Positions 5,696 to 45,265 of a DNA stretch of 64,000 bases are shown piece after piece. Within the stretch, counting starts at the first letter, position 1. Every line of letters begins with the position of its first letter. A program made the translations under genes and the position numbers. Below the pieces are notes generated by a model, which saw nothing but the letters and a program-made list of their open reading frames with translations, was not told the origin of the DNA and made no database searches. The stretch comes from an uncultured Bacilli bacterium (lineage in GTDB: Bacteria > Bacillota_I > Bacilli_A > RF39 > UBA660): positions 64,834-128,833 of the forward strand of contig CAKPSB010000002.1 of assembly GCA_934183155.1 (NCBI GenBank), given 5' to 3'.

Positions 5696-6567
5696 ATATA
5701 GAAATGGCATATTTAATTGGAATGATATTAGGCAATGGAGAAATTCAAAAGGGTAATCACGAAACAATTGTAACTATTGATATACCACATAAAAATTTAT
5801 ATACTGACGATTTTAAGGATGTAAAAATATATGTAAAAGCTAGTATTACTGATATACGAGATATTGTTGAACCACTTATTGGAAGCAACTTAAAACTTAC
5901 ACAGGAAGATAGATCAACTATAATTTCTTTTGTTAAACCGAATGAAGAATATGTAATGAGGCAAATACTGAAATTTGTTGGAAATGGTCGTAAACATTCA
6001 ACTATGGAAATGAATCCCGATTTATTTAGTATGACAAGTGATGAAAAAAAATCATTGCTTAGAGGTATTGCGGATGTTACAGGATATATTAGAAAAAGTA
6101 ACATTGCTTTTGGACAAGAGGGAGCTCATAGAGTGTACATTGAAATTCCGTGTAATTGGAAAATGGTTATTGATATTGCAAACATGTTAAAAGACGTTGA
6201 TATTCCAATTCAAACAATAGATTTTGGACATCCTAATTTTAGAGATAGTAATTTAATAAAGTATAATGAAGGTATGCCTAATTATTGGAAAAAAGAGCAT
6301 CAAATTAAAATATATGCAAATGAATTTTTACCAATTGGGTTTAATATAAAACATAAACAAGAGGCTTTAGAAAAATATAGTGATGAACTTTTAAAACATC
6401 TTAATCCAGAAAAGACTCATAAATATTATTGGGAAAAAAACATAAAGAAAGGTAAAGAAAAGTTAAAACATCCAGGTGAAAATGACCCATCCTTACCTAA
6501 GGAAATACGGGGAAAACATTTTAATTCATGGACAGAGTTAGCAAGGGTATTGGGTTATGATAAATAA
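5692..6567 (+). CDS. hypothetical protein translationally coupled to the methyltransferase (ATGA overlap); candidate restriction/effector component
   Basis: Start overlaps the MTase stop. Two weak LAGLIDADG-like segments ('LIGMILGNGE', 'LRGIADVTG'). No secure family assignment from sequence alone. Confidence 0.35.
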   Translation: MNIEMAYLIGMILGNGEIQKGNHETIVTIDIPHKNLYTDDFKDVKIYVKASITDIRDIVEPLIGSNLKLTQEDRSTIISFVKPNEEYVMRQILKFVGNGRKHSTMEMNPDLFSMTSDEKKSLLRGIADVTGYIRKSNIAFGQEGAHRVYIEIPCNWKMVIDIANMLKDVDIPIQTIDFGHPNFRDSNLIKYNEGMPNYWKKEHQIKIYANEFLPIGFNIKHKQEALEKYSDELLKHLNPEKTHKYYWEKNIKKGKEKLKHPGENDPSLPKEIRGKHFNSWTELARVLGYDK

Positions 6568-7054
6568 TGTTTCTAAAGAAATTGAATTGTATGAGCCAAT
6601 GAGAAAATGGTTGCAAAAATATTTAGAGGAAAAGTATAAAAATGCTGAAGTAATAACTATTGATTCACATGCTAGAACTTTAGATTCATATTTGAATCAA
6701 TTTGGCTTGCTTGATCAATATCCTCTAACTGTTGGGCTAGACATTCAGGTAGATGTTTTAGGTATAGTAAAGTACAAGAATAGTACTAATCTTATTTTCA
6801 TTGAGGCAAAAAAGACGCAACTTAATCTTCATGATTTGGGACAATTATGGGCTTATTGTAAGTTGTGTGATCCTCTTGAGGCCTTTCTACTATCATCATA
6901 TGGATTGGGAAGTTTAAACAAATTATTCAATAATTTATTGAGAGATGATTTATTAGATTTTGGTGATGGTAAAAAGATTAAAAAAATGCAAGTTGGGAAG
7001 TGGAATATTATAACTAACAATATAGATTATAATTCGTTAATTCCTAAAATTTAG
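6557..7054 (+). CDS. small PD-(D/E)xK nuclease-fold protein (putative)
   Basis: 'GLDIQVDVLG…IFIEAKK' fits the D…(D/E)xK restriction-endonuclease-like pattern; overlaps the upstream gene by 11 nt. Confidence 0.4.
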   Translation: MINNVSKEIELYEPMRKWLQKYLEEKYKNAEVITIDSHARTLDSYLNQFGLLDQYPLTVGLDIQVDVLGIVKYKNSTNLIFIEAKKTQLNLHDLGQLWAYCKLCDPLEAFLLSSYGLGSLNKLFNNLLRDDLLDFGDGKKIKKMQVGKWNIITNNIDYNSLIPKI

Positions 7055-7092
7055 TAGTTATACTATTACATGGATGAGGTAGGAGATGAAAT

Positions 7093-9234
7093 ATGGAATT
7101 ATTTTTAAAAAAAGTTGAAAACGCATTTGGAATTAAAAGTTTACATTTAAATTTGGAAAATGATAAGAAAATGTATCAAGAATTAATATATTCTAAAAAT
7201 GGTTCTTTTAAAACTTCTTTTTCAAATACTTTATATAATTTAAGTAATGGTACGTTAGAAAATGTATTTGATAGATTAACAGATGAAAAAGCTATTTTAG
7301 ATATATCTATTTTAGAAAATGGTAAAGAAATAAAAAATTTTGACAATCGATTTGTTGTTTTTTCTAGAGAAATATATGAACAGCATTCTAAATTATTGTC
7401 TGATTATAGTTCTGAATTAGAGACACTTACTATCGATAAAAAAAATAGTGAATATATAAATGAATTATTAACTGAGGAAACTATAGAAATCAAATTACAG
7501 ATTGATAATTATTTAAAAGGTACTGGTTTAAACTTTGAAATATTACTTGATATGTTTTCTAATTTAGAAGATGGATACTTAGATAGAATAATTCAATTAC
7601 TGAATACAATTATTAATCATGAAGCTCAAGACATTAGTGAAATAAATATAAAAAAAATATATCAGAAAGCATATGATATTGTTGATCAGAGCGAATTTCA
7701 AAGCAAAATATCAAATTACATTCAGGTATTAGAAAATAAAATTAATGCTCAACTTTTTGACAAAAATTTTAACGAAAATAATTGCTTACAGTTTATAAAT
7801 AATGTTGATAAAGCAAAATATTTATCAGAAACAAAATCTAGGGGCTTATTTTTAAAAGATAAAGTATACTATGATATTGACGAAGTAAAAAAAATATTTG
7901 AAGAAGAAATTAAAAAAATATCAAAAGACCCTGAAATAATTGAACAAAGTAAAGAAATTACTAAATTAATGGGAACTGCTAAAGAATCTGAGTTTTTAAA
8001 AGAATCAATTCAAAAAAACCCTTTGCTTGTTAAACAGTTATCTGCTGGTAGAAAAAATATTCTTTTATCATATTTAAAATCTTCAAGTATAGATTACAAT
8101 TATTGGTTAGAAGTTGTAAAAAAAGCAAAAAAAGAATTAAATAATGTTTTAAAAATTGCGCAGGATAAACAAACGAATTTTGAACGTGCAATTGAAATAT
8201 ACAAAAATAGATTTCATCCAATTTTTGACATCAAAATAGTTAATAAGGCAGAGTCCATGTTAGGCATAAAAACTCCTACTATTACTTTTTATCATAATAG
8301 ATATTGTGAGATTCCTGTCTCAGAAACAAAATTAAGCCAAATTTTATCTTCTGGAGAAAAAACAACGCTTAATATATTAAAATTTATAGTTGAATATGAA
8401 AATTGCAAAAAATATCACCCATTTATAATTTTAGATGATATCGTAGAAACTTTTGATTATTCCAATCGCTATGCTTTTATGGAATACATAAATGATTTAG
8501 TAAATTTGGATGTTCCAACAATTGTTATGACGCATAATTTTGAATTTTATAGAACAGTTAGTAAAAGAATACCAAAATTAAGAAAAAGTGTTGCATCTGC
8601 CAACTCTAACGGCGTTGTAGATATTCAAACTAATAATCGAATTAACAAAAACATGGAAAATGTTTTAAAGTGCTCAAATATTTATGATTTCTTTTGTGCC
8701 ATTCCATATTTAAGAGAAATTAAAACAATTTTATTGGAAGACACCAAAACATTAGATTCGTGCCTTCATTACAAAGAAAACACTTCTAAATTACAAATTA
8801 AAGATATATTATTACAATTTCCAAGTAATGCTATAAAAAGTCTTAAAATAGATGAAAATGATATTTACATGGAAAAGTTGTTTGAAATAGCAGACAATTT
8901 ATCTGGATTTGATGATTTTGATATTGTAAAAAAAACAATTTTATCACTTTCTTGCAGACTTTTAATAGAAAGAAAAATAATTGCAAACAATTTTAATTTA
9001 TTAACTAATATTAATACGAATCAAACTGCACAGCTTCTTGATTTATACGGTGAAAAGTTATTTCCAAATGTAAAAAAATATCTTGAAGCAGTACAGTTAT
9101 CAACACCTGAGTTTATTCATGCTAATGCATTTATGTATGAACCATTAATTGACATAAATGGAAAATACTTGTTTGAATTATATAATCAAATTAAAAAAAT
9201 ACCTGATGAAAAAATATGGAAAAATAAAAATTAA
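7093..9234 (+). CDS. SMC/RecF/ABC-fold ATPase with a long coiled-coil-like insertion, a degenerate Walker A and an uncharacterised ~230-aa C-terminal domain (defence-associated)
   Basis: N-terminal 'SKNGSFKTS' (degenerate GxxxxGKT); signature-like 'LSSGEKTTLNIL'; Walker B/D-loop 'FIILDDIVETFD'; H-loop 'IVMTHNF'. Confidence 0.5.
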   Translation: MELFLKKVENAFGIKSLHLNLENDKKMYQELIYSKNGSFKTSFSNTLYNLSNGTLENVFDRLTDEKAILDISILENGKEIKNFDNRFVVFSREIYEQHSKLLSDYSSELETLTIDKKNSEYINELLTEETIEIKLQIDNYLKGTGLNFEILLDMFSNLEDGYLDRIIQLLNTIINHEAQDISEINIKKIYQKAYDIVDQSEFQSKISNYIQVLENKINAQLFDKNFNENNCLQFINNVDKAKYLSETKSRGLFLKDKVYYDIDEVKKIFEEEIKKISKDPEIIEQSKEITKLMGTAKESEFLKESIQKNPLLVKQLSAGRKNILLSYLKSSSIDYNYWLEVVKKAKKELNNVLKIAQDKQTNFERAIEIYKNRFHPIFDIKIVNKAESMLGIKTPTITFYHNRYCEIPVSETKLSQILSSGEKTTLNILKFIVEYENCKKYHPFIILDDIVETFDYSNRYAFMEYINDLVNLDVPTIVMTHNFEFYRTVSKRIPKLRKSVASANSNGVVDIQTNNRINKNMENVLKCSNIYDFFCAIPYLREIKTILLEDTKTLDSCLHYKENTSKLQIKDILLQFPSNAIKSLKIDENDIYMEKLFEIADNLSGFDDFDIVKKTILSLSCRLLIERKIIANNFNLLTNINTNQTAQLLDLYGEKLFPNVKKYLEAVQLSTPEFIHANAFMYEPLIDINGKYLFELYNQIKKIPDEKIWKNKN

Positions 9235-9642
9235 TGGTTAAAAAACAATGTTTTTTTACATAATTTTGTCATTTTCGTTTACTTAATAACGTTCTCTTTT
9301 TTGACATTGACTTCTAATTTATTTACGATATAATTATTATAATATAGCAATAGTTCTAGGATATGAACTATTAGATGCTAAAATACTATATTCAGTTTAT
9401 GAGTATAGTATTTTTTTGTAAGGAGGAATTGTTATCTAAAATTATATAAACAAAAAGTATGTACCAAGAAATTATAAAAAAATAAATAATTAAGGTACCT
9501 AAAAAAGTTGGTTTATGTGTGAAAAGAGGTTCATAATTAGCAATTTTGTTAATCCAAAAGTATGTCATTTGTATAACCGTTTGTGTGTCTAACTGCTATT
9601 TTTGATACAAAATTTGCTATTTTTAGTTAACCCAATAGTATG

Positions 9643-9746
9643 ACATTTATTTTAATGTATGACAAAGTAGTCTTTCACAATCCCTTTAAAATAGGGCTAA
9701 ACTCCCCACTGGGAAGTTGTTTGTCAGCCATCCTTATCCTGCTAAA
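9643..9746 (+). ncRNA. candidate structured RNA/DNA element inside the island's non-coding region (function unknown)
   Basis: Locally GC-rich. Outer inverted repeat TGACAAA…TTTGTCA encloses two hairpins (CCCT-ttaaaat-AGGG and TCCC-cact-GGGA). No ORF. Confidence 0.25.
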
Positions 9747-9924
9747 AACAAACACGCGGAATATTTAGAAAATTAGAGAATTAAAGTCATAAGTTATGTA
9801 CCCAATTTTATATAAAAACAATAAAAAAATTTATTAAGGAGGAGTGATTTATAAGATGTAAAAGTAATATAAATTTAAGTTTTAGGAATATATTTAAGTA
9901 TGAAACCAAAAGGGGTAGATTGGT

Positions 9925-10110
9925 ATGATAATAACTGAAACTTTTAAAAATGGTGGTAAAGATATTGGGGCTTTATTACAAGAATATGTATGCTTAATAC
10001 TTAAATATAAAGATGAAAATGGTAAAATAGATGACACAAATGATGGTAAGAGAGTTATAATGGAATCGGCAAACAAGATGCTATGCAAAAGAAAGGAGAA
10101 TAATGTATAG
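9925..10110 (+). CDS. small hypothetical protein overlapping the recombinase start; possible accessory or directionality factor
   Basis: 61-aa ORF preceded by GGGG RBS-like sequence; stop overlaps the recombinase ATG. Confidence 0.25.
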   Translation: MIITETFKNGGKDIGALLQEYVCLILKYKDENGKIDDTNDGKRVIMESANKMLCKRKENNV

Positions 10111-11677
10111 CACAGTAAAACCGCCATCATTTTATAATGTAGGAATATATATAAGATTATCGCAAGAAGATGAGGATAAAGCACATAAAAGAGAGTCTGA
10201 AAGCGAAAGTGTATTAAATCAAAGAAGTTTACTTATGAACTTTTTGAGGGATAATGGATTTGTTTTAACTGATGAGTATGTTGATGATGGATATTCAGGT
10301 ACTAACTTTGATAGACCAGCATTTAAAAGATTACTTGAAGACATAGAAAAAGGAAAAATAAATTGTGTCATAACTAAAGACTTATCAAGATTAGGTAGAG
10401 ATTATATCAAATGTGGTTATTATATAGAACAATATTTTCCATTAAAGAAAGTTAGATATATATCTATACTAGATAATGTAGATACTTTTCTAGATTCTGC
10501 AAATAATGATATAGCACCTTTCAAAGCTTTATTTAATGATATGACTAGTAAAGATACATCAAAGAAAATAAAATCAATATTAAGAGATAAAAAAGTGAAA
10601 GGTAAGTTTATAGGTAGTAAACCCAGTTTTGGCTATATGAGAGATCCACTTGATAAAGGACATCTAGTGCCAAACCCAGACACAGCATGGATAGTAAAAA
10701 GAATATTTAATGAAGTATCAAGAGGAGATAAAATATCAGATATAATTGAAAGATTAAATAATGAGAATATTCCAACACCAAGTGCATATAAACAAATAAA
10801 AAAATCAAAAAGACAAATAAATGGATATATTTGGACTTGTAGTACGATTAACAAAATATTAAAAAATAGAATGTATACTGGTGATATGATTCAAAATGTT
10901 CAGACAAAATTAAACTATAAATCACAAAAGAGAATATGTCTTTCTAGTGAATATTGGATAATTGTAGAAAATACTCATGAACCATTAGTAAATAGGGTAA
11001 TATTTAATCAAATACAGACAAGTGCTAATAGAACTAGAACAGTAAAATTAAACCGTCCACAGAGGCTATTAGAGGGCTTACTTTATTGCAAAGAGTGTGG
11101 TAATAAGCTAACGGTTAGTTATAGGGAAAAGCGCAATTACTGGTCTATAAATTGCAATAAATATTCTAGAAGTCCAAGACAAAGATTATGTGAACCACAT
11201 TTTTCAGAATATAATAGTTTTGAAAAAATAATTTTAAATCAAATCAAAAAAACTTGTAAAAAATATATAGAAAAAGTTGACATTGATAGTTTAGTATCTA
11301 ATATAAAAAGTGAGAAGGATAACAAGGAAGATTTGATTATAGAAAAACAAAAATTAGAAAGTAATATCAAAGAACTACAACTAAAAATAGATGCTTTATA
11401 TGAAGATAAATATAATGGGATAATCTCAGTTGATACTTATACAAGATTATCTTCTAATACAGAAAATCTAATAAGAACATACAACTCTAGAATAAAAGAA
11501 TTAGAAAATTCTATTAATGAAGTTCCTAAAAAACATAATGATGAAGAAATAAAACAAAAAATAAAAGAATTAATTAGTATGAAAAAACCTACTAGAGAAT
11601 TATTATTTATACTAGTAGATAAAATAATTGTTGATAAAGATAAAAATGTAGAAATAATATATAATTTTAATAAATAA
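10103..11677 (+). CDS. large serine recombinase (resolvase/invertase N-terminal catalytic domain, recombinase domain, zinc ribbon and coiled-coil)
   Basis: 'VGIYIRLSQED', 'YVDDGYSGTNFDRPAFKRLLEDI', 'ITKDLSRLGRD', Cys-rich 'CKECGNKL…C' zinc ribbon, C-terminal coiled-coil; 524 aa. Confidence 0.85.
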   Translation: MYSTVKPPSFYNVGIYIRLSQEDEDKAHKRESESESVLNQRSLLMNFLRDNGFVLTDEYVDDGYSGTNFDRPAFKRLLEDIEKGKINCVITKDLSRLGRDYIKCGYYIEQYFPLKKVRYISILDNVDTFLDSANNDIAPFKALFNDMTSKDTSKKIKSILRDKKVKGKFIGSKPSFGYMRDPLDKGHLVPNPDTAWIVKRIFNEVSRGDKISDIIERLNNENIPTPSAYKQIKKSKRQINGYIWTCSTINKILKNRMYTGDMIQNVQTKLNYKSQKRICLSSEYWIIVENTHEPLVNRVIFNQIQTSANRTRTVKLNRPQRLLEGLLYCKECGNKLTVSYREKRNYWSINCNKYSRSPRQRLCEPHFSEYNSFEKIILNQIKKTCKKYIEKVDIDSLVSNIKSEKDNKEDLIIEKQKLESNIKELQLKIDALYEDKYNGIISVDTYTRLSSNTENLIRTYNSRIKELENSINEVPKKHNDEEIKQKIKELISMKKPTRELLFILVDKIIVDKDKNVEIIYNFNK

Positions 11678-15227: not shown

Positions 15228-15301
15228 GCCGCAATAGTATAAAGGTATTACGAGGCCATGGTAAGGCTTTAATCGGCGTTCAATTCGCCGTTGCGGCACC
15301 A
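15228..15301 (+). tRNA. tRNA-Thr (anticodon GGT)
   Basis: Folded by hand. Acceptor GCCGCAA/TTGCGGC + A + CCA; anticodon stem AGGCC/GGCTT with loop ATGGTAA; T-arm CGGCG-TTCAATT-CGCCG. Confidence 0.75.
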
Positions 15302-18240: not shown

Positions 18241-18268
18241 AAGAGTTTGATTTTAAACTCTTTTTTTG
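18241..18268 (+). terminator. rho-independent terminator
   Basis: AAGAGTTT-gatt-TTAAACTCTT followed by a T-tract. Confidence 0.6.
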
Positions 18269-18310
18269 CTATAATTAATAAGGCTTTTAAAAGAAAGAAA
18301 GGAGAAAAAA

Positions 18311-19956
18311 TGAGTAAAATTAAAATATTTGCCCTCGGCGGATTAAATGAAAACGGTAAAAACATGTATGTTGTTGATGTCGACCATGACATATTTATAT
18401 TTGATGCCGGATTAAAATATGCCGATGACAAAATGCTTGGAGTAGATTATATTATTCCTAGCTTTGAATATATTAAGAAAAACAAAAAAAATATCAAAGG
18501 AATTTTTATTACCCACGGGCACTATGATCATATGGGAGCCCTAACAGAAATATTGAAAGAAATTCCTGATTTAAAAATTTATGGTACAACATTTACCATG
18601 GAAATTATTAAAGATGAACTTTTAGCGGATAATTTAAATATTAAAAACTTACATATTATTAAACCACATAGAAAAATCAACTTTGGAAAAAATAGTATTT
18701 TTCCAATATCTCTTACCCATATGTTACCAGATAACGTTGGCTATGTTTTATATACCCCAGATGGTGCAATATTCTACACCGGTAATTTTGTGTTTGATTC
18801 AACCATGCTAGGTGGATATAAAACAGACATTGGAAAATTAGCTTATGTTGGAAAGCAAGGAGTTTTATGCTTACTTTCAGAATCACTATATGCTGATAAA
18901 AAAGGTTTCACATCGCCTAACCATCGAACAGCTAAAGCTATTAGAGAAATATTAAACCGTAATAATGGAAGAATTTTATATAATATCTATCAAGCTCAGC
19001 TTTATCGTATTCAAGAATTATTTAACGAAATAAAAAACACAGATCGTAATGTAGTTATTATGGGTAAAAATTTAGAATCAGTTATTTTAAAAGCTATCGA
19101 TATGCACTATGTCGATTTTGACAAAAAAAGAATTTGTCCAATTACCCACGTTAATGATCCTAAAATAGTTGTTATTGTATCAGATGAAAGAGAAAAACCA
19201 TTTTCAAACTTAAAAAGAATTGTTAGAGGATATGACAAATTCATCACAGTAACCCCAGAAGATACAATTATATTTGCCTCACCAATTGAAGATGGCATGG
19301 AAAGAACAGCCACCAAATTGCTTGATGGACTTGCTAAAATAGGTGCCAATGTCATCGAACTTTCCAAGAAAAAATACTTGTCACATCATGCTTCTTCAGA
19401 AGATTTAATGCTTATGCTAGATTTGATGAAACCAAAATATTACATGCCAGTCATTGGTGAATATCGTCATCAAGTCGCTAATGCCAACGTTGCTAAAGAA
19501 CTTGGAATGGATGAAAAAAACATTCTACTTAAACTTAATGGACAAGTAGCTTATTTTGAAAATGGACAGTTAATTGATAATGGTTGGAAAGAAAACGTTG
19601 ATGATATTTTAATCGATGGTGAAGTAGCAGGAGATGTAGGAGAACTAGTTCTTAAAGATCGTGAACTTTTAAGTGATAGTGGAATTGTTATTATCACCGC
19701 CACATTAGATAAACAAACAAAAAAGCTATTAGCTGGTCCAGAAGTTTTAACTAGAGGATTTATATTTGTTAAAAACAATATTGATCTAATAAAAGAAGCT
19801 AGTAACATAGCTACGAATATAATTAAAGAAAACACAAAAGAAAATTATATAGATTTTTCTAAAGTAAAATATGGAATCAGAGACAAAGTTGGAAAATATT
19901 TTTATGAACAAACAGAATGTAAACCAATGATATTAATTGTTATAGGAGAGGTGTAA
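18311..19956 (+). CDS. rnj: ribonuclease J (metallo-beta-lactamase/beta-CASP RNase)
   Basis: 'MSKIKIFALGGLNENGKNMY', 'HGHYDHMGAL'; start placed at 18311 after the AAGGAGAAAAA RBS; the track ORF start at 18247 is a spurious extension. Confidence 0.85.
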
Positions 19957-20005
19957 TACCTTTCCTTTTCTTTTTAACTGTTATATACTAACTATAGGTG
20001 AGAAT

Positions 20006-21802
20006 ATGAAGAAAAAAGGATTTACATTAATAGAATTACTAGCAGTAATAACTATATTAGGAATTATATTATTAATAATAGTTCCAAACGTTACGGGTAT
20101 GTTAAACCGTTCAAAAGGAAGAATAAATGAAGAACAAAAAAGAGCATTAATAGATAGTGCCAAAAAATGGGGGACAAACAATTTATTACTCAAAAACGGT
20201 AAAGCGTATTATAATAACAATCAAAAAAGATATGTAACCTTAGGTGAATTAAAAAACTATGGATACCTAGAAGATAAAAAAATTAAAAATTTAATCAATA
20301 AATCAGATATTCCTGATGAAACAAAAATATGTATAAATTATAAAAACAATCAATTTGTCTATTCAATTAATGATGATAATATGTGTGAAAACAATTACCC
20401 TATTATGATGAAAAGAGATACGTCTAAAGCATTCTGGCAATCTGATTATAAAAATAAAATATCTACAGTAGCTGTTCTTGATAATAAAAACGTTCCTTCA
20501 ACTGTAGTAGCATCATGGGATGTATCAGAGAAACAAAACAAATCAGTTATGGCTTGGATTATAGATGATCCAAATAATAGCGGTATGTATAAGCTTTATA
20601 TTGGTGGTGATGGAGGAGTTGCTGCACCAGCTGATTCAAGTAATTTATTTGATGGGGGTATCGAAGGCCAAGAAGAAAATTTTGGTAAAACAAAGACAAT
20701 GAATTTAGCAAAATTAGATACATCAAGAGTAACAAATATGGAGGGGATGTTTGCTGGTTGTGGTTCTCTTACGAACTTAGATGTAAGTAACTTTGATACA
20801 AGCAAAGTAACAAATATGAGTTATATGTTTTCTGGCTGTGAGTCTCTTACCAGCTTAGCTTTAAATAGCTTCGATACAAGCAAAGTAACAGATATGAGTG
20901 GTATGTTTAGCTATAATTCTCTTACAAGTTTAGATGTAAGTAACTTTAATACAAGCAATGTAACAAATATGGCTTCTATGTTTAGGTACTGTAGTTCTCT
21001 TACCAACTTAGACATAAGTAACTTTAATACAAGCAAAGTAACAGATATGAGTGGTATGTTTAGCGATAGTTCTTTTACCAGCTTGGATTTAAGCAACTTT
21101 AATACAAGCAAAGTAACAGATATGAGTCGAATGTTTTATAATTATAGGTCTCTTACAAGCTTAGATTTAAGTAATTTTAACACAAGTAATGTAACAAATA
21201 TGAGTTATATGTTTGGCAGTTGTGGTTCTCTTACCAGCTTGGATTTAAGCAACTTTAATACAAGCAAAGTAACAAATATGGAAGCTATGTTTGATAGTTG
21301 TAGGGCTCTTACCAGCTTGGATTTAAGCAACTTTAATACAAGCAAAGTAACAAATATGTATTATATGTTTTATGACTGTAGTTCTCTTACAAACTTAGAC
21401 GTAAGTAACTTTAATACAAGCAAAGTAACAGATATGGGTTATATGTTTTTTCGCTGTAGTACTCTTACCAGCTTAGATTTAAGTAAATTTGATACCAGCA
21501 ATGTAGCAAATATGAGTGGTATGTTTAATTATTGTAGTTCTCTTACCAACTTAGATGTAAGTAACTTTAATACAAGCAAAGTAACAGATATGGGTTATAT
21601 GTTTAGGTATTGTAAATCTCTTACCAACCTAAAATTGTGTTCATTTGATACTTCTAAAGTAACAAATATGTATTCTATGTTTGAGGGTACTTCAAAATTA
21701 ACTAAAGTTTATGTTGGACCTAAATGGACAACGGCAAATGCTACTACAACTAGTATGTTTACTAGGAGTGGAGTATCAGCAGTAACAACAAATCAATGTT
21801 AA
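20006..21802 (+). CDS. prepilin-type N-terminal domain fused to a BspA/DUF285 leucine-rich-repeat surface protein (paralogue 1; ~13 repeats of 26 aa)
   Basis: 'MKKKGFTLIELLAVITIL' class-III signal; repeats 'SLTSLDLSNFNTSKVTNMSYMFxxC'; conserved C-terminus '…VSAVTTNQC'. Confidence 0.75.
   Translation: MKKKGFTLIELLAVITILGIILLIIVPNVTGMLNRSKGRINEEQKRALIDSAKKWGTNNLLLKNGKAYYNNNQKRYVTLGELKNYGYLEDKKIKNLINKSDIPDETKICINYKNNQFVYSINDDNMCENNYPIMMKRDTSKAFWQSDYKNKISTVAVLDNKNVPSTVVASWDVSEKQNKSVMAWIIDDPNNSGMYKLYIGGDGGVAAPADSSNLFDGGIEGQEENFGKTKTMNLAKLDTSRVTNMEGMFAGCGSLTNLDVSNFDTSKVTNMSYMFSGCESLTSLALNSFDTSKVTDMSGMFSYNSLTSLDVSNFNTSNVTNMASMFRYCSSLTNLDISNFNTSKVTDMSGMFSDSSFTSLDLSNFNTSKVTDMSRMFYNYRSLTSLDLSNFNTSNVTNMSYMFGSCGSLTSLDLSNFNTSKVTNMEAMFDSCRALTSLDLSNFNTSKVTNMYYMFYDCSSLTNLDVSNFNTSKVTDMGYMFFRCSTLTSLDLSKFDTSNVANMSGMFNYCSSLTNLDVSNFNTSKVTDMGYMFRYCKSLTNLKLCSFDTSKVTNMYSMFEGTSKLTKVYVGPKWTTANATTTSMFTRSGVSAVTTNQC
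20690..21660 (+). repeat. tandem 78-bp coding repeats (26-aa DUF285/BspA LRR units) in paralogue 1
   Basis: Periodic 'agcttagat(g/t)taagtaactttaatacaagcaaagtaaca(a/g)atatg' units. Confidence 0.8.
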
Positions 21803-21835
21803 ATAATAAAATTAATAAAAAGTTGAGGTTATAAA

Positions 21836-23782
21836 ATGAAGAAAAAAGGATTTACATTAATAGAATTACTAGCAGTAATAACTATATTAGGAATTATATT
21901 ATTAATAGTAGTTCCAAACGTTACGGGTATGTTAAACCGTTCAAAAGGAAGAATAAATGAAGAACAAAAAAGAGCATTAATAGATAGTGCCAAAAAATGG
22001 GGGACAAACAATTTATTACTCAAAAACGGTAAAGCGTATTATAATAACAATCAAAAAAGATATGTAACCTTAGGTGAATTAAAAAACTATGGATACCTAG
22101 AAGATAAAAAAATTAAAAATTTAATCAATAAATCAGATATTCCTGATGAAACAAAAATATGTATAAATTATAAAAACAATCAATTTGTCTATTCAATTAA
22201 TGATGATAATATGTGTGAAAGCAATTACCCTATTATGATGGCAAGAGATAGGTCTAAAGCATTTTGGCAAAGTACATATAAAGATAAAATATCTACAGTA
22301 GATGTTCTCGATAATAAAAACGTTCCTTCAACTGTAGTAGCATCATGGGACGTATCAGAGAAACAAAATAAATCAGTTATGGCTTGGATTATAGATGACC
22401 CAGATAATAGTGGTATGTATAAACTTTATATTGGTGGTGATGGAGGAGTTGCTGCCCCAACTAATTCAAATGGGTTATTTGGTGGATATAATTCTAATTT
22501 TAGTAAAACAAAGACAATGAATTTAACTAATTTAGATACATCAAGAGTAACAAATATGATAATGATGTTTTATGATTGTAGTTCTCTTACCAGCTTAGAT
22601 TTAAGTAATTTTGATACAAGTAATGTAACAGATATGAGTAATATGTTTTATAAATGTAGTTCTCTTACGAACTTAGATATAAGTAATTTTAATACAAGCA
22701 AGGTAACAAATATGGATACTATGTTTTATGGTTGTAGTTCTCTTACTAGCTTAGACGTAAGTAACTTTGATACAAGAAATGTAACAGATATGAGCTGGAT
22801 GTTTAGTGGGTGCAGTAAACTTACCAACTTAGATGTAAGTAATTTTAATACAAGCAAAGTAACATCTATGAGTAGTATGTTTTCTGGTTGTAGTTCTCTT
22901 ACCAGCTTAGACGTAAGTAAATTTGATACAAGCAAAGTAACATCTATGAGAAGTATGTTTTCTGGTTGTAGTTCTCTTACCAGCTTAGACGTAAGTAAAT
23001 TTGATACAAGCAAAGTAACAAATATGAGTTATATGTTTTTCTTTTGTAGTTCTCTTACCAGCTTAAATGTAAGTAATTTTAATACAATCAAAGTAACAGA
23101 TATGAGTTTTATGTTTTCTGATTGTAAATCTCTTACAAACTCAGATGTAAGTAACTTTGATACAAGTAAAGTAAAGAATATGAGTGGTATGTTTAGGTAT
23201 TGTAGTTCTCTTACCAGCTTAGATGTAAGTAACTTTGATACAAGCAAAGTAACAAATATGGACAGTATGTTTCTGGGCTGCAGTAAACTTACCAGCTTAG
23301 ATTTAAACAACTTTAATACAAGCAAAGTAACGGATATGTTCCAAATGTTTACTCATTGTAATTCTCTTAAAAATTTAGATATAAGTAAATTTAATACGAG
23401 CAATGTAACAGATATGGGTTCTATGTTTTATGGCTGCAGTAAACTTACAAATTTAGATGTAAGTAACTTTAATACAAGCAATGTAACAAGTATGTTCCAA
23501 ATGTTTAGTGGGTGTTGGGCTCTTACCAGCTTAAATGTAAGCAACTTTGATACAAGCAAAGTAACAAATATGAGTTATATGTTTATAGCCTGCAGTAAAC
23601 TTACCAGCTTAAAATTGTGCTCATTTGATACATCTAAAGTAACGACAATGAATTCTATGTTTTATGGTACTTCAAAATTAGCTAAAGTTTATGTTGGATC
23701 TAAATGGACAACGGCAAATGCTACTACAACTAATATGTTTACTGGTAGTGGCGTATCAGCAGTAACAACAAATCAATGTTAA
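21836..23782 (+). CDS. prepilin-type N-terminal domain fused to a BspA/DUF285 LRR surface protein (paralogue 2; ~15 repeats)
   Basis: First ~630 nt >95% identical to paralogue 1; identical 33-bp upstream spacer. Confidence 0.75.
   Translation: MKKKGFTLIELLAVITILGIILLIVVPNVTGMLNRSKGRINEEQKRALIDSAKKWGTNNLLLKNGKAYYNNNQKRYVTLGELKNYGYLEDKKIKNLINKSDIPDETKICINYKNNQFVYSINDDNMCESNYPIMMARDRSKAFWQSTYKDKISTVDVLDNKNVPSTVVASWDVSEKQNKSVMAWIIDDPDNSGMYKLYIGGDGGVAAPTNSNGLFGGYNSNFSKTKTMNLTNLDTSRVTNMIMMFYDCSSLTSLDLSNFDTSNVTDMSNMFYKCSSLTNLDISNFNTSKVTNMDTMFYGCSSLTSLDVSNFDTRNVTDMSWMFSGCSKLTNLDVSNFNTSKVTSMSSMFSGCSSLTSLDVSKFDTSKVTSMRSMFSGCSSLTSLDVSKFDTSKVTNMSYMFFFCSSLTSLNVSNFNTIKVTDMSFMFSDCKSLTNSDVSNFDTSKVKNMSGMFRYCSSLTSLDVSNFDTSKVTNMDSMFLGCSKLTSLDLNNFNTSKVTDMFQMFTHCNSLKNLDISKFNTSNVTDMGSMFYGCSKLTNLDVSNFNTSNVTSMFQMFSGCWALTSLNVSNFDTSKVTNMSYMFIACSKLTSLKLCSFDTSKVTTMNSMFYGTSKLAKVYVGSKWTTANATTTNMFTGSGVSAVTTNQC
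22520..23650 (+). repeat. tandem 78-bp coding repeats in paralogue 2
   Basis: Same unit as paralogue 1; it also produces the spurious antisense ORFs listed in the track. Confidence 0.8.
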
Positions 23783-23815
23783 ATAATAAAATTAATAAAA
23801 AGTTGAGGTTATAAA

Positions 23816-25051
23816 ATGAAGAAAAAAGGTTTTACATTAATAGAATTACTAGCAGTAATAACTATATTAGGAATTATATTATTAATAGTAGTTCCAAACG
23901 GTACGGGTATGTTAAACCGTTCAAAAGAAAGAATAAATGAAGAACAAAAAAGAACATTAATGGATAGTGTTAAAAAGTGGGGGACAAGTAACTTAACGCT
24001 TAAAAATGACAGAGTATATTATAATAATAGTCCCAAATCGTATGTTACTATAGGTGAGTTAAAAAACTATGGATATTTAGAAGATAAAAAAATTAAAAAT
24101 CTAACTAATAAATCAGACATTTCGGATGAGACAAAAATATGTATAAATTACAAAAACAATCAATTTGTCTATTCAATTAATGATGATAATAAGTGCAAAA
24201 ACAATTACCCTATGATGATGGAAAGAGATGTGTCTAAAGCTTTTTGGACTTATGAGTCAAGAATATCTACTATAGATGTTCTTGACAATAAAAGCGTACC
24301 CAATAATGCAGTAGCATCATGGGACGTATCAGAGAAACAAAATAAATCAGTTATGGCTTGGATTATAGATGATCCAAATAATAGTTATATGTATAAACTT
24401 TATATTGGTGGTGATGGTGGTGTTGCCGCCCCAGCTGATTCATATTCATTATTTGGTGGGTATGAAAGTAGTTTTGATAGAACAAAGACAATGAATTTAG
24501 CAAAATTAGATACATCTAAAGTAGCAAATATGAGCGAAATGTTTGCCTATTGTAATTCTCTTACCAGCTTAGATGTAAGTAACTTTGATACAAGTAATGT
24601 ACTAAATATGCGTGCTATGTTTGCCGGTTGTAATAATCTTACTGATTTAAATATAAGTGGCTTTGATACAAACAATGTAAAGAACATGGCATATATGTTT
24701 TATAATTGTAATTCCCTTAAAACTTTAAATTTAAGTTCATTTGATACATCTAAAGTAATATATATGGATAACATGTTTTACAATTGTAATTCCCTTACAA
24801 GCTTAGATTTAAACAACTTTAATACAAGTAGTGTAACAATTATGGATTCAATGTTTGCCGAGTGTAGTTCTCTTACAAGCCTAAAATTATGTTCATTCGA
24901 CACATCAAAAACAACCATAATGAGTTATATATTCAGTGGCACTTCAAAATTAACTAATGTTTACGTTGGAAGCAAATGGAAAACTGTAGCTACAGCAACT
25001 AATATGTTTACTGGTAGTGGCGTATCAGCAGTAACAGAGGGTCAATGTTAA
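23816..25051 (+). CDS. prepilin-type N-terminal domain fused to a BspA/DUF285 LRR surface protein (paralogue 3; ~6 repeats)
   Basis: Same N-terminal module and same upstream spacer; shorter repeat array; ends '…VSAVTEGQC'. Confidence 0.75.
   Translation: MKKKGFTLIELLAVITILGIILLIVVPNGTGMLNRSKERINEEQKRTLMDSVKKWGTSNLTLKNDRVYYNNSPKSYVTIGELKNYGYLEDKKIKNLTNKSDISDETKICINYKNNQFVYSINDDNKCKNNYPMMMERDVSKAFWTYESRISTIDVLDNKSVPNNAVASWDVSEKQNKSVMAWIIDDPNNSYMYKLYIGGDGGVAAPADSYSLFGGYESSFDRTKTMNLAKLDTSKVANMSEMFAYCNSLTSLDVSNFDTSNVLNMRAMFAGCNNLTDLNISGFDTNNVKNMAYMFYNCNSLKTLNLSSFDTSKVIYMDNMFYNCNSLTSLDLNNFNTSSVTIMDSMFAECSSLTSLKLCSFDTSKTTIMSYIFSGTSKLTNVYVGSKWKTVATATNMFTGSGVSAVTEGQC
24500..24930 (+). repeat. tandem 78-bp coding repeats in paralogue 3
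   Basis: Same unit as paralogue 1, more divergent. Confidence 0.7.
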
Positions 25052-25065: not shown

Positions 25066-25092
25066 AAAGCTAGATATACCCTAGCTTTTTTT
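25066..25092 (+). terminator. rho-independent terminator
   Basis: AAGCTAG-atatacc-CTAGCTT followed by TTTTTT. Confidence 0.6.
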
Positions 25093-25129
25093 CAGCAAAT
25101 ATGATATTATCTTTGAGGAAGTGATTTAC

Positions 25130-26539
25130 ATGTTAAAACCAGAATTAAAAGAAGCAAAAAAAAGAACAAAGAACAAAGTTGATATAAAAAAATATACAAT
25201 AGATAATAATTTAAAAAATTTAGGCGAAGGCAAAACTTATTTTGTAAAAACATATGGCTGTCAAATGAATGTTCATGATTCTGAAAATATAAAAGCTATA
25301 TTAGAACAAATGAAATTTAAAGAAGCCAGCAGCATGGAAACAGCAGATCTAATTTTACTTAATACATGCGCTATTAGAGAAAACGCTCATAATAAAGTAT
25401 TTGGTATGATTGGAAGAATTAAACACATGAAAGAGGAAAGACCAAATATAATTGCTGGAGTGTGTGGTTGTATGGCTCAAGAAGAAGTGGTTGTTAATGA
25501 AATATTAGACAAATATAAATGGCTTGACTTTGTATTTGGTACGCACAACATTCATGAACTTCCTAAAGTTTTAGAAAATGCTATGAATAATAAAAAAATA
25601 GATATAGAAGTCTACAGCTGCGAAGGAGACATCATCGAAGACATGCCAGCCAAAAGAGACAGCAAATATAAAGCTTGGGTAAATATTATGTATGGATGTG
25701 ATAAGTTTTGTACATATTGTATAGTACCATACACTAGAGGCAAACAAAGAAGCAGAAGATTTGGAGATATTATAAGAGAAGTTAAATCATTAAAAGATGA
25801 AGGCTATAAAGAAGTAACCTTACTTGGCCAAAATGTTAATGCTTATGGTAAAGATTTAAACTTAGAATATGACATGGGTGATCTATTAAAAGCTGTTGCT
25901 GAAACAAATATCGAAAGAGTTAGATTTATTACATCTCATCCTTGGGATTTTACAGATAAAATGATTGATATAATTGGAAAATATCCTAATATAATGCCTT
26001 ATATTCATCTTCCTCTGCAATCTGGAAGTGACAAAATATTAAAATTAATGGGAAGAAGATATACCAAGGATTCTTATTTAAAATTATTTAAAAAAATAAA
26101 AGAAACAGTACCTAATGCCGCAATCACTACAGATATTATTGTTGGCTTTCCAGGTGAAACAGAAGAAGATTTTAATGATACCTTAGAAGTCGTAAACGAA
26201 TGTAAATATGATTCAGCCTTTACCTTTATTTTTTCTCCTAGAGAAGGCACACCAGCCGCAAAAATGAAAGATGATGTACCATTAAAACAAAAAGAACAAC
26301 GATTATACAAATTAAATGAAGTTGTCAATAAATACGCTAAAGAGGCTAATGAAAAATATAAAGATAAAGTAGTAAAAGTATTACTTGAAAATGAAAGTGA
26401 AAAAGAAGGAAAACTTGCAGGATATACAGAAACAATGAAGTTAGTTAATGTTAAAGCACCAAAGAGTATGCTTGGACAAATTGTTGATGTGAAAATAACC
26501 GACGTTAAAACATGGAGTATGGATGGCAAGATAGCTTAA
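25130..26539 (+). CDS. miaB: tRNA (i6A37) methylthiotransferase MiaB (radical-SAM MTTase with TRAM domain)
   Basis: 'YFVKTYGCQMNVHDSE', radical-SAM 'CDKFCTYC', C-terminal TRAM; ATG at 25130 after GAGGAA. Confidence 0.85.
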   Translation: MLKPELKEAKKRTKNKVDIKKYTIDNNLKNLGEGKTYFVKTYGCQMNVHDSENIKAILEQMKFKEASSMETADLILLNTCAIRENAHNKVFGMIGRIKHMKEERPNIIAGVCGCMAQEEVVVNEILDKYKWLDFVFGTHNIHELPKVLENAMNNKKIDIEVYSCEGDIIEDMPAKRDSKYKAWVNIMYGCDKFCTYCIVPYTRGKQRSRRFGDIIREVKSLKDEGYKEVTLLGQNVNAYGKDLNLEYDMGDLLKAVAETNIERVRFITSHPWDFTDKMIDIIGKYPNIMPYIHLPLQSGSDKILKLMGRRYTKDSYLKLFKKIKETVPNAAITTDIIVGFPGETEEDFNDTLEVVNECKYDSAFTFIFSPREGTPAAKMKDDVPLKQKEQRLYKLNEVVNKYAKEANEKYKDKVVKVLLENESEKEGKLAGYTETMKLVNVKAPKSMLGQIVDVKITDVKTWSMDGKIA

Positions 26540-26813: not shown

Positions 26814-28145
26814 ATGGAAAATTCTAATAAAAAGAATAAAATTTTAGATTTTGTTCAAAAAGTTGAAGACAGAGCCAATGATACTTTAAATGACTCTTTA
26901 TTGGACGAAGATGCAAAAGGAGAAAATTTTAATGTCAGCAGTAGTGATATAGTCAAAAATTCAACCAGAGCCAAATTATCAAAAATACCATGGCTAATAG
27001 CTATATTCTTAATCTTAATTATATCATTAATGATTGGAACTATGTTTTTCAAAAATAACCCTAAAACCTTGTTTACTCAAACAATTGACGGGATGTTTTC
27101 CTATTTAGAAAACAATTTCAATGATAGTGCCTATGACATTACTGACGGTAATATAAGTTTAAATTATAATTTAATAACAGATAAAGAAAACAATCAATTA
27201 AATGAAGATTTAAATCATATAAAATGGAACATTGATTATGTATTAGATAGTGCCTCAAACAAGGCCTATATCGATTTAAAAACAAAATATGATGATGATA
27301 ATTTGCTTAATTTAAATGTGTATTCCGATGATATAAACACTTATATATATATACCAAGTTTATATAACAAATATATCAAAACAAAAACCGAAAAAAAAGT
27401 TGGCTTTGCAACTAGTCATGATATAAGAGTTATTCTCGACGGCTTCAATCAAGCCATTGATAAAGTTATCAATAACGAAAAAATTTATAACGCCAAAGAA
27501 GACATTCAAATAGATAATAAAAATATCAAAGCATACAAAACTAAACTTATTGTTAGTAAACAAAACAGAGATAGAGTTAGTGCAACTTTTATAAACACCT
27601 TAAAAGCAAATGATGAATTTGTAGAATCACTAGCCAAACTCAAAAGACAAACAACTAGTGAAATTACTGAAAAATTAGATAAATATTCAACCAAGTTAAA
27701 CAAAAAACTAAAAACCCTAGGTACATTAGATGTTTCACTTTATACAAACAGAAAAACAAAAGACTTTTTAAAAGTTACCTTTGCAGCTAAAAATAAAAAT
27801 GCTAGTTTAATAAGACTAGCTCAAGATAAATTTTCTTATGAACTAAATAAAGAAGACCAACAAGAAAGCGGCGAATTTTCTTTAAAGGTAAATGATAATA
27901 AAACAAAATACATAATCAATACTACATATAAAAAAGTAGAAAATGGTAATACCGTTTTTGAAGATAATTGTAATTTAAAACTAACTAATAAAAAAGCAAA
28001 TTCATTTAAAAAAATAGATACTACAAGTAGTGTCACTCAAGATCAAATAAGTGATTTAGAGAAAGCTCAAATATATATGAATGTTGTAAATAATCAAAAA
28101 TTGAATAGTATAATAAGTAAATACATAAAAACTTTTGAAAACTGA
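26814..28145 (+). CDS. hypothetical membrane-anchored protein (single TM, large extracytoplasmic domain)
   Basis: TM 'IPWLIAIFLILIISLMIGTMFF'; no recognisable catalytic motif. Confidence 0.5.
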   Translation: MENSNKKNKILDFVQKVEDRANDTLNDSLLDEDAKGENFNVSSSDIVKNSTRAKLSKIPWLIAIFLILIISLMIGTMFFKNNPKTLFTQTIDGMFSYLENNFNDSAYDITDGNISLNYNLITDKENNQLNEDLNHIKWNIDYVLDSASNKAYIDLKTKYDDDNLLNLNVYSDDINTYIYIPSLYNKYIKTKTEKKVGFATSHDIRVILDGFNQAIDKVINNEKIYNAKEDIQIDNKNIKAYKTKLIVSKQNRDRVSATFINTLKANDEFVESLAKLKRQTTSEITEKLDKYSTKLNKKLKTLGTLDVSLYTNRKTKDFLKVTFAAKNKNASLIRLAQDKFSYELNKEDQQESGEFSLKVNDNKTKYIINTTYKKVENGNTVFEDNCNLKLTNKKANSFKKIDTTSSVTQDQISDLEKAQIYMNVVNNQKLNSIISKYIKTFEN

Positions 28146-28212
28146 TATAAAATTATCAGTTTTTTATCATTTTTAGACCATAAAAGCATATCTTAAAATG
28201 AGGGGTGATAAT

Positions 28213-28746
28213 ATGGCATCATATAAAGAAATAGTAACTAAAGCAATTATTGGAAAAGGAAAAAAACACTTTAAAAATAATTATTCATTAAAAGTAGAAA
28301 ATAAGCCAACTACTGTCTTAGGTTGCTGGGTAATAAACCATAAATTTAAGGGATATAAATCAGGTGATAAAATAGGAGTAGATGGTTCCTTTGATATAAA
28401 CATCTGGTACTCATATAACAGTGACAGTCAAACAGCCGTTATCAATAAAAAAATAGAATATAATGAGCTATTCAATGTTAAATTAAAAGAAAACACCGAC
28501 TCCACCAATGCCGATATTATTGTAAGATCTTTAAAACAACCAACTTGCTCCGGCGTTAATATCAAAGATGATGAAACAATATCATTTAACATTGAAAAAG
28601 AATTAGGCGTTGAAATAGTAGGAGAAGCCAAAGTTAAAATAGCAGTTGAAGAAGATGAAGAGCCATGGGAAGAAATAACAGATGATGTAGATGAAGACAC
28701 ATTAAAAGAAATAGACGAAAAAGTAGACGAAGATTATCTAAAATAG
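28213..28746 (+). CDS. cotE: spore coat morphogenetic protein CotE homologue
   Basis: 'SYKEIVTKAIIGKGKKHF…VLGCWVINHKF…DINIWYSY…LKQPTCSGVNI…EIVGEAKVKIAVEEDEEPWEE' is collinear with B. subtilis CotE, including the acidic tail. Confidence 0.7.
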   Translation: MASYKEIVTKAIIGKGKKHFKNNYSLKVENKPTTVLGCWVINHKFKGYKSGDKIGVDGSFDINIWYSYNSDSQTAVINKKIEYNELFNVKLKENTDSTNADIIVRSLKQPTCSGVNIKDDETISFNIEKELGVEIVGEAKVKIAVEEDEEPWEEITDDVDEDTLKEIDEKVDEDYLK

Positions 28747-45256: not shown

Positions 45257-45265
45257 AGGGATATC

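Follow-up and report, generated by a model that had tools for sequence, protein, structure and literature searches.

A locus of three predicted modular type IV pilins with leucine-rich repeats, apparently diversified by recombination, in an uncultured gut Bacilli bacterium

Proteins that begin like a type IV pilin and continue as a long array of leucine-rich repeats (LRR) raise the question of where such an array is presented and how its length comes to vary. Three such genes lie in tandem in a stretch of 64,000 nucleotides (the window) of an uncultured Bacilli bacterium of the human gut. On balance we consider it probable that their products are paralogous type IV pilins of bimodular build, whose LRR part is displayed on a filament and which are diversified by recombination.

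The original prediction had described three tandem prepilin-LRR genes, and three co-oriented open reading frames (ORFs) which pass the respective domain models are located exactly at the predicted positions (Table 1). A motif count gave the expected numbers of 13, 15 and 6 repeats in gene order. Likewise, the two 33-bp spacers, which had been described as identical, match at 33 of 33 positions, and the identity of genes 1 and 2 over their first 630 nt, claimed to exceed 95 %, amounts to 96.3 % (99.7 % over the first 300 nt). Gene 3 has clearly diverged further, with an identity of 87 % in the first 300 nt. A common tail of about 60 amino acids (aa) was found in part, since the last 180 nt of genes 1 and 2 share about 91 % nucleotide identity and the tail of gene 3 has an indel of one aa. 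Furthermore, the conserved module of about 190 aa turned out to extend over about 225-230 aa and to comprise two modules, of which the pilin part accounts for about 130 aa and the LRR N-cap for about 95 aa. A start codon and a ribosome-binding site are present at each of the three genes. In a promoter scan, shuffled controls gave more matches than the actual sequence, and no convincing promoter was seen ahead of gene 1. The hairpin behind gene 3 is probably the end of the three-gene unit.

Table 1 Features of the pilin-LRR locus and of the Tad-like cluster in the window
Feature	Position	Strand	Details
Terminator-like hairpin and T-run	19944-19966	+	-12.4 kcal/mol; closes the RNase J gene; distance to gene 1, 40 nt
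Gene 1, predicted modular pilin, 598 aa	20006-21802	+	13 PARCEL units at 20696-21703; leader MKKKG/F; pilin module aa 1-~130; LRR N-cap aa ~131-230; C-cap to Cys598
A5 run in gene 1, equivalent to that of gene 3	20323-20327	+	
Spacer, 33 bp	21803-21835	+	with ribosome-binding site (GAGG)
Gene 2, predicted modular pilin, 648 aa	21836-23782	+	15 PARCEL units at 22514-23683
A5 run in gene 2, equivalent to that of gene 3	22153-22157	+	
Exact direct repeat of 69 nt in the gene 2 array	22874-22942 and 22952-23020	+	
Spacer, 33 bp	23783-23815	+	identical copy
Gene 3, predicted modular pilin, 411 aa	23816-25051	+	6 PARCEL units at 24488-24955
A5 run in gene 3	24133-24137	+	codons 106-108
Hairpin and T7 run after gene 3	25066-25092	+	-10.3 kcal/mol; unscored by the consensus scan
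Tad-like cluster	44539-49509	+	two TadE-like genes, TadZ/ParA, CpaF/TadA ATPase, TadB, TadC

The pilin-type N-terminus that had been proposed is backed by sequence and predicted fold and agrees with the published concept of modular pilins. A class III signal peptide of type IV pilins is defined by a brief basic leader with a final Gly, followed by about 20 hydrophobic residues with a Glu at +5, and this is what the leader and hydrophobic stretch MKKKG/FTLIELLAVITILGIILLI display (MKKKG/FTLIE, the slash marking the cleavage site). All three proteins match the Pfam model N_methyl (PF07963) with 29-31 bits (cut-off 21.2) and the NCBIfam model TIGR02532 with 30-31 bits (cut-off 16.3). The pilin module ends at Cys127, and Cys109 and Cys127 are located on either side of the last beta-hairpin of the pilin head. 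In the AlphaFold2 (AF2) model of gene 3 (pLDDT 85, LRR part above 90) a helix at 8-59 is followed by strands at 60-121, which corresponds to the lollipop fold of a long N-terminal alpha-1 helix on an antiparallel beta-sheet. In addition, the sequence profile of the module matches PilE1 of Streptococcus sanguinis and other pilins with values of 1e-10 to 1e-5. Between the paralogues its pN/pS is 0.21 and therefore the module is maintained by purifying selection. Two other pilin classes were rejected: a ComGC competence pilin, as the NCBIfam equivalog NF040999 reaches just 33-36 bits at a cut-off of 75, and a Flp/TadE-type (type IVc) pilin, which would be a Flp pilin of 50-80 aa with G/xxxxEY or carry a TadE domain, whereas the proteins of 411-648 aa are of the N_methyl type and match neither TadE (PF07811) nor Flp.

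Behind a short linker follows an LRR solenoid composed of the N-cap, 6-15 units and a C-cap with one cysteine in the last unit and another at the very terminus. Tandem Repeats Finder reports 78-bp arrays with scores of 936-1060, corresponding to units of 26 aa, except for two units of 25 aa in gene 1. These tandem units match both models of the PARCEL/DUF285 family, namely DUF285 (PF03382) with 296, 417 and 117 bits (cut-off 25) and the 26-residue PARCEL repeat TIGR02167 with 458, 524 and 158 bits (cut-off 30) for genes 1, 2 and 3, the latter in 12, 14 and 5 matched stretches, respectively. The BspA-type LRR model LRR_5 (PF13306) is matched by gene 3 (47.5 bits versus 27.7), while genes 1 and 2 are reported as DUF285 and not as LRR_5. 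The predicted fold is an LRR solenoid as well: the best PDB matches of the gene 3 LRR part are TpLRR of Treponema pallidum (6mlx, probability 1.0) and pneumococcal PcpA (4cp6), although with weak Foldseek E-values of 0.004-0.02 and a sequence identity of 9-20 %. Within the unit a hydrophobic skeleton (T9, M15, F19, L25) is unvarying and the variability is concentrated at positions 16, 17, 20 and 21, which sit away from the predicted beta-strand at unit positions 1-3. Between strains the arrays have a pN/pS of 0.45-0.55, whereas RNase J and MiaB on the flanks have values of 0-0.09.

Both modules reside in one ORF and each occurs also separately. A stand-alone pilin (P0006) with 53 % identity to the pilin module terminates right after the second Cys, and another protein (P0005) has the LRR N-cap/LRR module behind a non-pilin N-terminus. 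Moreover, in related metagenome-assembled genomes (MAGs) the same pilin module bears dockerin, Ig-like, Flg_new and Fib_succ_major cargo. As judged from these comparisons and the structural model, the proteins are modular pilins in the sense of Raynaud et al. (2021), of the kind of S. sanguinis PilB. The architecture itself is already catalogued: Dataset S1 of that study includes at least nine proteins with one copy of N_methyl (IPR012902) plus DUF285 (IPR005046) and at least four with three copies, as well as 18 with N_methyl plus BspA LRR (IPR026906) (PMC8179133). When the literature was searched for work on BspA and pilins combined, no paper treating both was retrieved. Pilin-LRR fusions are a catalogued but unstudied architecture. 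It recurs in gut Bacilli which are known from metagenomes alone, including Hadza, Nepali and other cohorts.

If such a protein is a pilin, a prepilin peptidase encoded elsewhere would cleave it after Gly5, and the pilin module would become a subunit of a type 4 filament, either at low abundance or at the tip. The filament would hold the LRR part away from the cell towards a ligand on the host, a glycan or another microbe, and the LRR proteins may function as adhesins. Filament display is plausible, but a rigid solenoid of 280-520 aa is a bulky filament subunit, which counts against it. It is conceivable, though on the whole unlikely, that the class III signal peptide serves for export and anchoring only, with the alpha-1 helix remaining in the membrane or forming a short stub and the LRR at the cell surface. 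In agreement with such a simple handle, assembly machinery is missing from the neighbourhood of these orphan genes, and long proteins with a pilin leader look like a general surface-display signal in related gut Bacilli: 63 of 108 pilin-like ORFs at 80 loci, among the matches listed, comprise at least 250 aa, with several per MAG and unrelated cargo. An archaeal precedent exists in the bindosome of Sulfolobus (PMC3047682). However, selection acts beyond leader and helix on a whole globular pilin head including Cys109 and Cys127, the module is homologous to stand-alone pilins, and those bacterial modular pilins that have been studied are incorporated in filaments (PMC8179133). We therefore prefer the display of the LRR on a filament.

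The machinery for such a filament was searched for in the surroundings. Neither a prepilin peptidase (Peptidase_A24) nor PilB/ComGA or PilC/ComGB is encoded in the window or in the 10 kb beyond either end, and hence the PilD/TadV peptidase, for which a search had been suggested, did not come to light in this range. The 10 kb beyond either window end contain no type 4 filament genes, and a six-frame search of the window yielded neither other GFxxxE pilins nor Flp pilins. Within the window, machinery of type 4 filaments is confined to the Tad-like cluster 20 kb downstream, with TadE-like genes at 44539 and 44888 and the Tad-type ATPase and platform at 46012-49509. It is no more than a candidate assembly system because the N-terminus of the three proteins belongs to the N_methyl (T4a/Com) type and not to the Flp/TadE type. 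The majority of similar pilin genes in related MAGs are orphans far from machinery. A T2SSE ATPase is near eight of the 80 related loci and a PilD-like peptidase near one, in a distant gut MAG (L039); therefore, co-location cannot identify the system.

Pilins of this type were found near Tad clusters at three of about 20 loci, a frequency which is indistinguishable from chance, as each genome has many pilin genes. In one relative (L064) two such genes are inserted between tadA and tadB, and in two others (L100 and L124) tadC is followed by one at a distance of about 1 kb. The leaders of Flp (KG/QALVEY), TadE-like proteins (KKG/QALIEF) and modular pilins (KKG/FTLIEL) are near-identical around the cleavage site. 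Furthermore, the Tad cluster of the window lacks an adjacent Flp gene, although Flp genes occur in relatives. Gene placement, leader likeness and the missing Flp neighbour may be taken as hints of a hybrid type 4 filament. That the N_methyl pilin module of the clade is a general handle for dozens of cargo domains, assembled by a CpaF/Tad-type machine and not by PilB/PilC/Com, seems rather improbable to us.

How the three genes came to differ was addressed with contigs of the same species from gut metagenomes, whose flanking genes are 98.7-99.5 % identical. All of them are consensus assemblies of short-read metagenomes, and the differences were seen between samples. Gene number, repeat number and on/off state differ, as was to be shown by the strain comparison proposed along with the original prediction. 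Alleles with 5, 6, 13, 14, 15 and 16 units were found. The one-unit (78-nt) indels coincide with exact intragenic repeats of 69 nt and 48 nt; for instance, a one-unit deletion in contig L010 maps to the 69-nt repeat of gene 2. In addition, the array of gene 2 is 97.3 % identical to that of gene 1 in contig L092, with the cassette (B) at position 2 here and at position 1 there. In a one-gene variant (L003), a deletion from three genes to one, the upstream sequence and first codons of gene 1 are joined to the body of gene 3. The first 330 nt of gene 3 type are present in all three genes of one strain, and in two samples (L094 and L096) they occupy gene position 1 including a frameshift. This frameshift, A5 to A4, splits the gene into an ORF of 109 aa and a downstream ORF. 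A contig in which the second gene is a near-perfect copy of the first (L011) was rejected as evidence of conversion, since the contig terminates 47 nt later and an assembly loop explains it equally well.

These 78-nt indels, cassette moves, the hybrid deletion and the 330-nt conversion between strains agree with the unequal crossing-over or gene conversion that had been suspected, and recombination and size variation at the locus are supported as far as the compared contigs reach. As judged from the strains compared, near-identical units recombine homologously, with gain or loss of 78 nt. The paralogues recombine as well, through 5′ and 3′ ends that are near-identical, whereby cassettes are replaced, genes are deleted and the 330-nt pilin part is converted. 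A one-base deletion in the A5 run turns copies off. Of the predicted size or antigenic variation, the size variation stood, in the form of differences between strains. They give no sign of a programmed or high-frequency switch. Of the devices for programmed phase or antigenic variation, the locus has neither a long simple-sequence tract such as a long homopolymer, nor an invertase, nor silent cassettes feeding one expression site, and the one tract scanned for inverted repeats (22500-23600) yielded none. For classical phase switching by slipped strands the A5 run is not long enough, and the only recombinase in the window (10103-11677) is part of a separate island.

The three genes might instead be ordinary duplicated surface-protein genes forming a static family, with the strain variation being mostly an artefact of metagenome assembly. 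Indeed, the unit indels lie exactly where an assembler could collapse repeats, at exact repeats of 48-69 nt, and both shortened arrays stem from MEGAHIT contigs; the gene copy of L011 near its contig end is as expected of an assembly loop. The exact proteins of genes 1, 2 and 3 recur on 10, 5 and 20 contigs, respectively, with gene 3 as the most conserved copy. However, replacement and repositioning of cassettes in arrays that are 82-85 % identical are impossible by repeat collapse, and the junction of L003 is a clean hybrid. The frameshift allele of gene 3 was recovered on eight contigs from several samples and assemblers and is found at gene position 1 in two samples, a diverged single-gene allele (L006) is situated on a 76-kb contig, and one MEGAHIT contig (L009) retains all 15 units. 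We consider such a static family very improbable. It is scarcely credible that the genes are dispensable remnants on the way to pseudogenes without current function, as the eight frameshifted contigs, one strain with all three copies frameshifted and a related organism in which RNase J and MiaB are not separated by the locus might suggest, for most contigs carry intact ORFs of 411-674 aa, the pilin module is under purifying selection, ribosome-binding sites and spacers are conserved and the fold is predicted with high confidence.

With recombination among modular pilins as the preferred reading, the locus would represent a compact natural case of adhesin diversification by unit gain and loss, cassette swap, handle conversion and on/off frameshift. 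If the LRR is indeed borne on a pilus, the genes probably serve colonisation or adhesion in a strain-specific manner and are targeted by host immunity, and the unit-number alleles form a set for testing solenoid length versus filament display.

The closest known counterparts are the modular pilins PilB (pilin plus vWA) and PilC (pilin plus lectin) of S. sanguinis (Raynaud et al. 2021, PMC8179133; Shahin et al. 2023, PMC9934059), which according to the former account are pilus-borne adhesins. Like those, the present proteins come from a monoderm host and have a canonical class III signal peptide as well as a small pilin module, which a short linker connects to a bulky binding domain of a kind not restricted to pili. 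In contrast, the cargo here is an LRR solenoid of variable length, the three tandem paralogues are located outside any pilus operon whereas pilB and pilC belong to the pil locus, and copy number, unit number and cassette vary among strains. The repeats resemble the PARCEL/DUF285 lipoproteins on the surface of Mollicutes, such as LppQ of Mycoplasma mycoides, described by Roske et al. (2010, PMC2996958) in a paper which does not mention pilins. Common to both are tandem amphipathic units of 25-26 residues matching TIGR02167 and PF03382, a conserved hydrophobic skeleton with variable hydrophilic positions, and multi-copy families with sequence differences between close strains. However, the export signal here is a prepilin leader and not a lipobox. 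As to the 'palindromic' dyad symmetry of PARCEL coding DNA, the one tract scanned (22500-23600) contains no inverted repeats measuring 14 nt or more within 80 nt; long antisense ORFs with repeated peptides are present and a weaker symmetry is possible. TpLRR and PcpA are likewise anchored by other means than a prepilin leader, namely by signal-peptide, lipoprotein or choline-binding means.

Variable pilus adhesins generated by DNA rearrangement are the PilV tip adhesin of the R64 shufflon and the products of pilE/pilS gene conversion in Neisseria. They share with the present locus a constant pilin N-terminus, exchangeable C-terminal binding parts and conversion between tandem or silent copies, but here neither a site-specific recombinase nor inverted repeats (scan of 22500-23600) nor promoterless silent cassettes were found, and the variation is seen between strains only. 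The bindosome of Sulfolobus, made up of sugar-binding proteins with class III signals (PMC3047682), likewise joins a pilin-type signal peptide to a large cargo unrelated to pilins, and a genome encodes many of these proteins; in contrast to that archaeal structure with its dedicated Bas assembly system, the proteins described here have kept a complete globular pilin head.

The three co-oriented open reading frames (ORFs) between the genes of RNase J and MiaB code for 598, 648 and 411 amino acids (aa), and judging from sequence and structural model their products are modular type IV pilins, i.e. a pilin module with a grafted non-pilin domain. All of them score above the Pfam thresholds for N_methyl (PF07963) and DUF285 (PF03382) and above the NCBIfam thresholds for TIGR02532 and the 26-residue 'PARCEL' repeat TIGR02167. 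Tandem Repeats Finder reported 78-bp arrays with scores near 1000, and 13, 15 and 6 units were counted by motif in genes 1, 2 and 3, respectively. Both copies of the 33-bp intergenic spacer are identical. Genes 1 and 2 agree in 99.7 % of the first 300 nt and in 96.3 % of the first 630 nt; the identity of gene 3 to both is about 87 %. Thus the original prediction of three tandem genes with 6, 13 or 15 repeats, identical spacers and more than 95 % identity over about 630 nt in genes 1 and 2 was borne out. Because a hairpin with a T-run is present at the end of the RNase J gene and a second one after gene 3, the three genes look like one unit, for which a promoter scan identified no promoter. Long antisense ORFs inside the arrays encode repeated peptides (LLTSKLVRELQP...); most probably they arise from the composition of the repeats and are not genes. 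The window is AT-rich (G+C about 29 %) and 99.99 % identical to a 150-kb Hadza human-gut metagenome contig over the comparable 21.2 kb, and one of its proteins shares a 90 %-identity cluster with an NCBI protein of a 'Bacilli bacterium'. The presence of CotE in the window, together with SpoVA genes close by, points to a spore-forming host.

Coordinates of features in the window
Feature	Position	Remark
Probable mobile or defence island	2268-11677	AAA_14 ATPase and two unknown ORFs among its genes
Fused EcoRI-like N6-adenine + C5-cytosine methyltransferase	3587-5695	in island
SMC-like ATPase	7093-9234	in island
Large serine recombinase	10103-11677	in island
tRNA-Thr (GGT), called by ARAGORN	15228-15301	
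RNase J gene	18247-19956	5' neighbour of the three genes
Genes 1, 2, 3	20006-21802, 21836-23782, 23816-25051 (+)	
Sites equivalent to the A5-to-A4 deletion	20323-20327, 22153-22157, 24133-24137	
Antisense ORFs in the arrays	20596-20805, 20911-21111, 22726-23013, 23029-23325 (-)	
miaB	25121-26539	3' neighbour of the three genes
443-aa protein and adjoining CotE	26814-28145 and 28198-28746	no Pfam match for the 443-aa protein
289-aa ORF	43560-44429 (-)	between mutS and Tad-like cluster
Tad-like cluster	44446-49509	two TadE-like genes, TadZ, CpaF/TadA, TadB, TadC
TadB	47327-48808	in Tad-like cluster

The pilin-type N-terminus that had been proposed is supported at the level of sequence and predicted fold. 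After the leader MKKKG come FTLIE, with Glu5, and a hydrophobic helix, and the sequence profile of the pilin module matches S. sanguinis PilE1 and other pilins. In an AF2 model of the gene 3 product (pLDDT 85), a long alpha-1 helix leads into a small beta-sheet that extends to residue 121, and a solenoid of high confidence follows. Cys109 and Cys127 lie on either side of the last hairpin of the module, whose boundary could be fixed because P0006, a stand-alone pilin of a related organism with 53 % identity to the module, stops directly after the second Cys. Tandem pilins of ordinary size (143 and 131 aa) were seen in the related organism L180-L184, after rpsP and a KH-domain gene and far from any machinery; among stand-alone pilins, the first of this pair is most closely related to the pilin module. 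According to a homologue search, the same module carries dockerin, Ig-like, Flg_new, Fib_succ_major and other cargo elsewhere.

The LRR module starts with an N-cap (residues ~131-230), which is also found behind a non-pilin N-terminus in the protein P0005. In structure, the module is matched best by the BspA-type LRR proteins TpLRR and PcpA. T9, M15, F19 and L25 are invariant in the 26-aa unit; positions 16, 17, 20 and 21 show an entropy of about 3 bits. Since the beta-strand is predicted at unit positions 1-3 (AF2 model of gene 3), the most variable residues would be placed away from the classical concave face. A Cys is present in the last unit and every one of the proteins ends with a Cys; by analogy with other LRR proteins we infer that these two form a C-terminal cap disulfide.

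The comparison contigs belong to the same species (nucleotide identity 99.5 % for RNase J and 98.7 % for MiaB), and all strain comparisons rest on short-read assemblies. Within this scope the expected variation in repeat number was found: gene 2 has 15 units in the window and in contig L009 and 14 in L010, and the 78-nt gap of L010 is located at a 69-nt exact repeat. Between the second genes of L092 and L097 there is a one-unit difference, which coincides with a 48-nt exact repeat; both shortened arrays come from MEGAHIT contigs. Cassettes vary as well, the order being A-B-C in the window and B'-D-C in L092. The first gene of L092 (16 units) has an array 97.3 % identical to that of window gene 2, and array D reaches no more than 82-85 % identity to any array of the window. 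As to copy number, L003 contains a single gene with the upstream region and first codons of gene 1 type and the body of gene 3, as would result, judging from sequence, from a crossover between the 5' ends. L006 has one diverged gene with 5 units, RNase J and miaB are adjacent without a pilin–LRR gene between them in L180-L184, and a 75 % homologue in another genome is located after a phosphoglucomutase gene. The arrays of L094 equal those of L092 (100 % and 99.4 % identity), and its first 330 nt are gene 3-type in all three genes; L096, from a second sample, has this segment at gene position 1. These 5' ends can be read as conversion of the pilin handle. Contig L011, which resembles an assembly loop, was left out. 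The proposed recombination is therefore supported between strains (unit number, cassettes, copy number and 5' conversion), but by these comparisons neither within a population nor as a programmed switch. No dedicated switching device is present.

Strains differ, furthermore, in the on/off state of the genes. The gene 3-type 330-nt segment carries an A5-to-A4 deletion, by which the ORF ends at residue 109 and the gene is split into a 109-aa ORF and a leaderless LRR ORF. This allele occurs in gene 3 in 8 contigs (within the same-species contigs L092-L099), and in one strain in all three genes together with the gene 3-type 5' end. Between strains, pN/pS is 0.45-0.55 for the pilin–LRR genes versus 0-0.09 for flanking genes. 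The pilin module is maintained, because its pN/pS between paralogues is 0.21.

No other GFxxxE pilin was found in the window, and no prepilin peptidase or PilB/PilC-type gene in the window or 10 kb beyond each end. The Tad-like cluster is conserved across the clade, and its TadB is extended N-terminally by about 300 aa ahead of the T2SSF domain. Several relatives possess a Flp pilin gene (63-74 aa, KG|QALVEY) just upstream of this cluster; the window has none, and no TadV peptidase adjoins its cluster. In the relative L064, the interval from tadA to tadB contains a pair of modular N_methyl pilin genes (one is broken), and L100 and L124 have one each about 1 kb after tadC; with 3 of some 20 loci, such proximity does not clearly exceed chance. 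In L039, a more distant gut MAG, PilC-like, PilD-like and T2SSE genes are located 5-9 kb from a similar pilin. For the 289-aa ORF beside the Tad-like cluster, Pfam gave no match even with the cut-off at E 1e-3; putative sortase-like motifs (GHN..., LWTCPY) were recognized by eye.

Elsewhere in the window, a probable mobile or defence island was identified, whose part from the methyltransferase onward is absent in strain L187, with SpoVA genes in its place. The segment of L186/L187 that precedes the window (by about 0.1-10 kb) codes for a protein of 2,362 aa or more without Pfam match, followed by four small genes including a Peptidase_S24-like signal peptidase; they may represent another surface-protein export cluster. 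The tRNA-Thr was called by ARAGORN and is absent from an Rfam gathering-threshold scan, which gave only the window's other two tRNAs. The 443-aa protein next to CotE, conserved in every strain as well as in the related organism L180, may be sporulation-related.

Pilins of modular design are exemplified by S. sanguinis PilB, in which a vWA adhesin module is grafted onto a pilin module, and more than 1,200 have been catalogued (Raynaud et al. 2021; PMC8179133). The pilin–LRR architecture is already known, because N_methyl–DUF285 and N_methyl–BspA-LRR are included in Dataset S1 of that work, but as far as this source goes only as a database entry. PF07963 and PF03382 were combined in at least 17 clusters of the homologue search, one of which bears the NCBI name 'BspA family leucine-rich repeat surface protein [Bacilli bacterium]'. 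Among the matches listed, 63 of 108 pilin-leader ORFs in 80 related-MAG loci have at least 250 aa, and several related MAGs contribute many such loci each. Multi-copy pilin–DUF285 families recur, since several of these genes also exist in other gut MAGs. MAG CAKPHO01 has two of about 538 aa, 4 kb apart (L015), and a third in L017; the further loci behind this observation are L012 and L072. The three genes are a new, unusually variable example of the pilin–DUF285 modular pilins, a class which is catalogued but unstudied.
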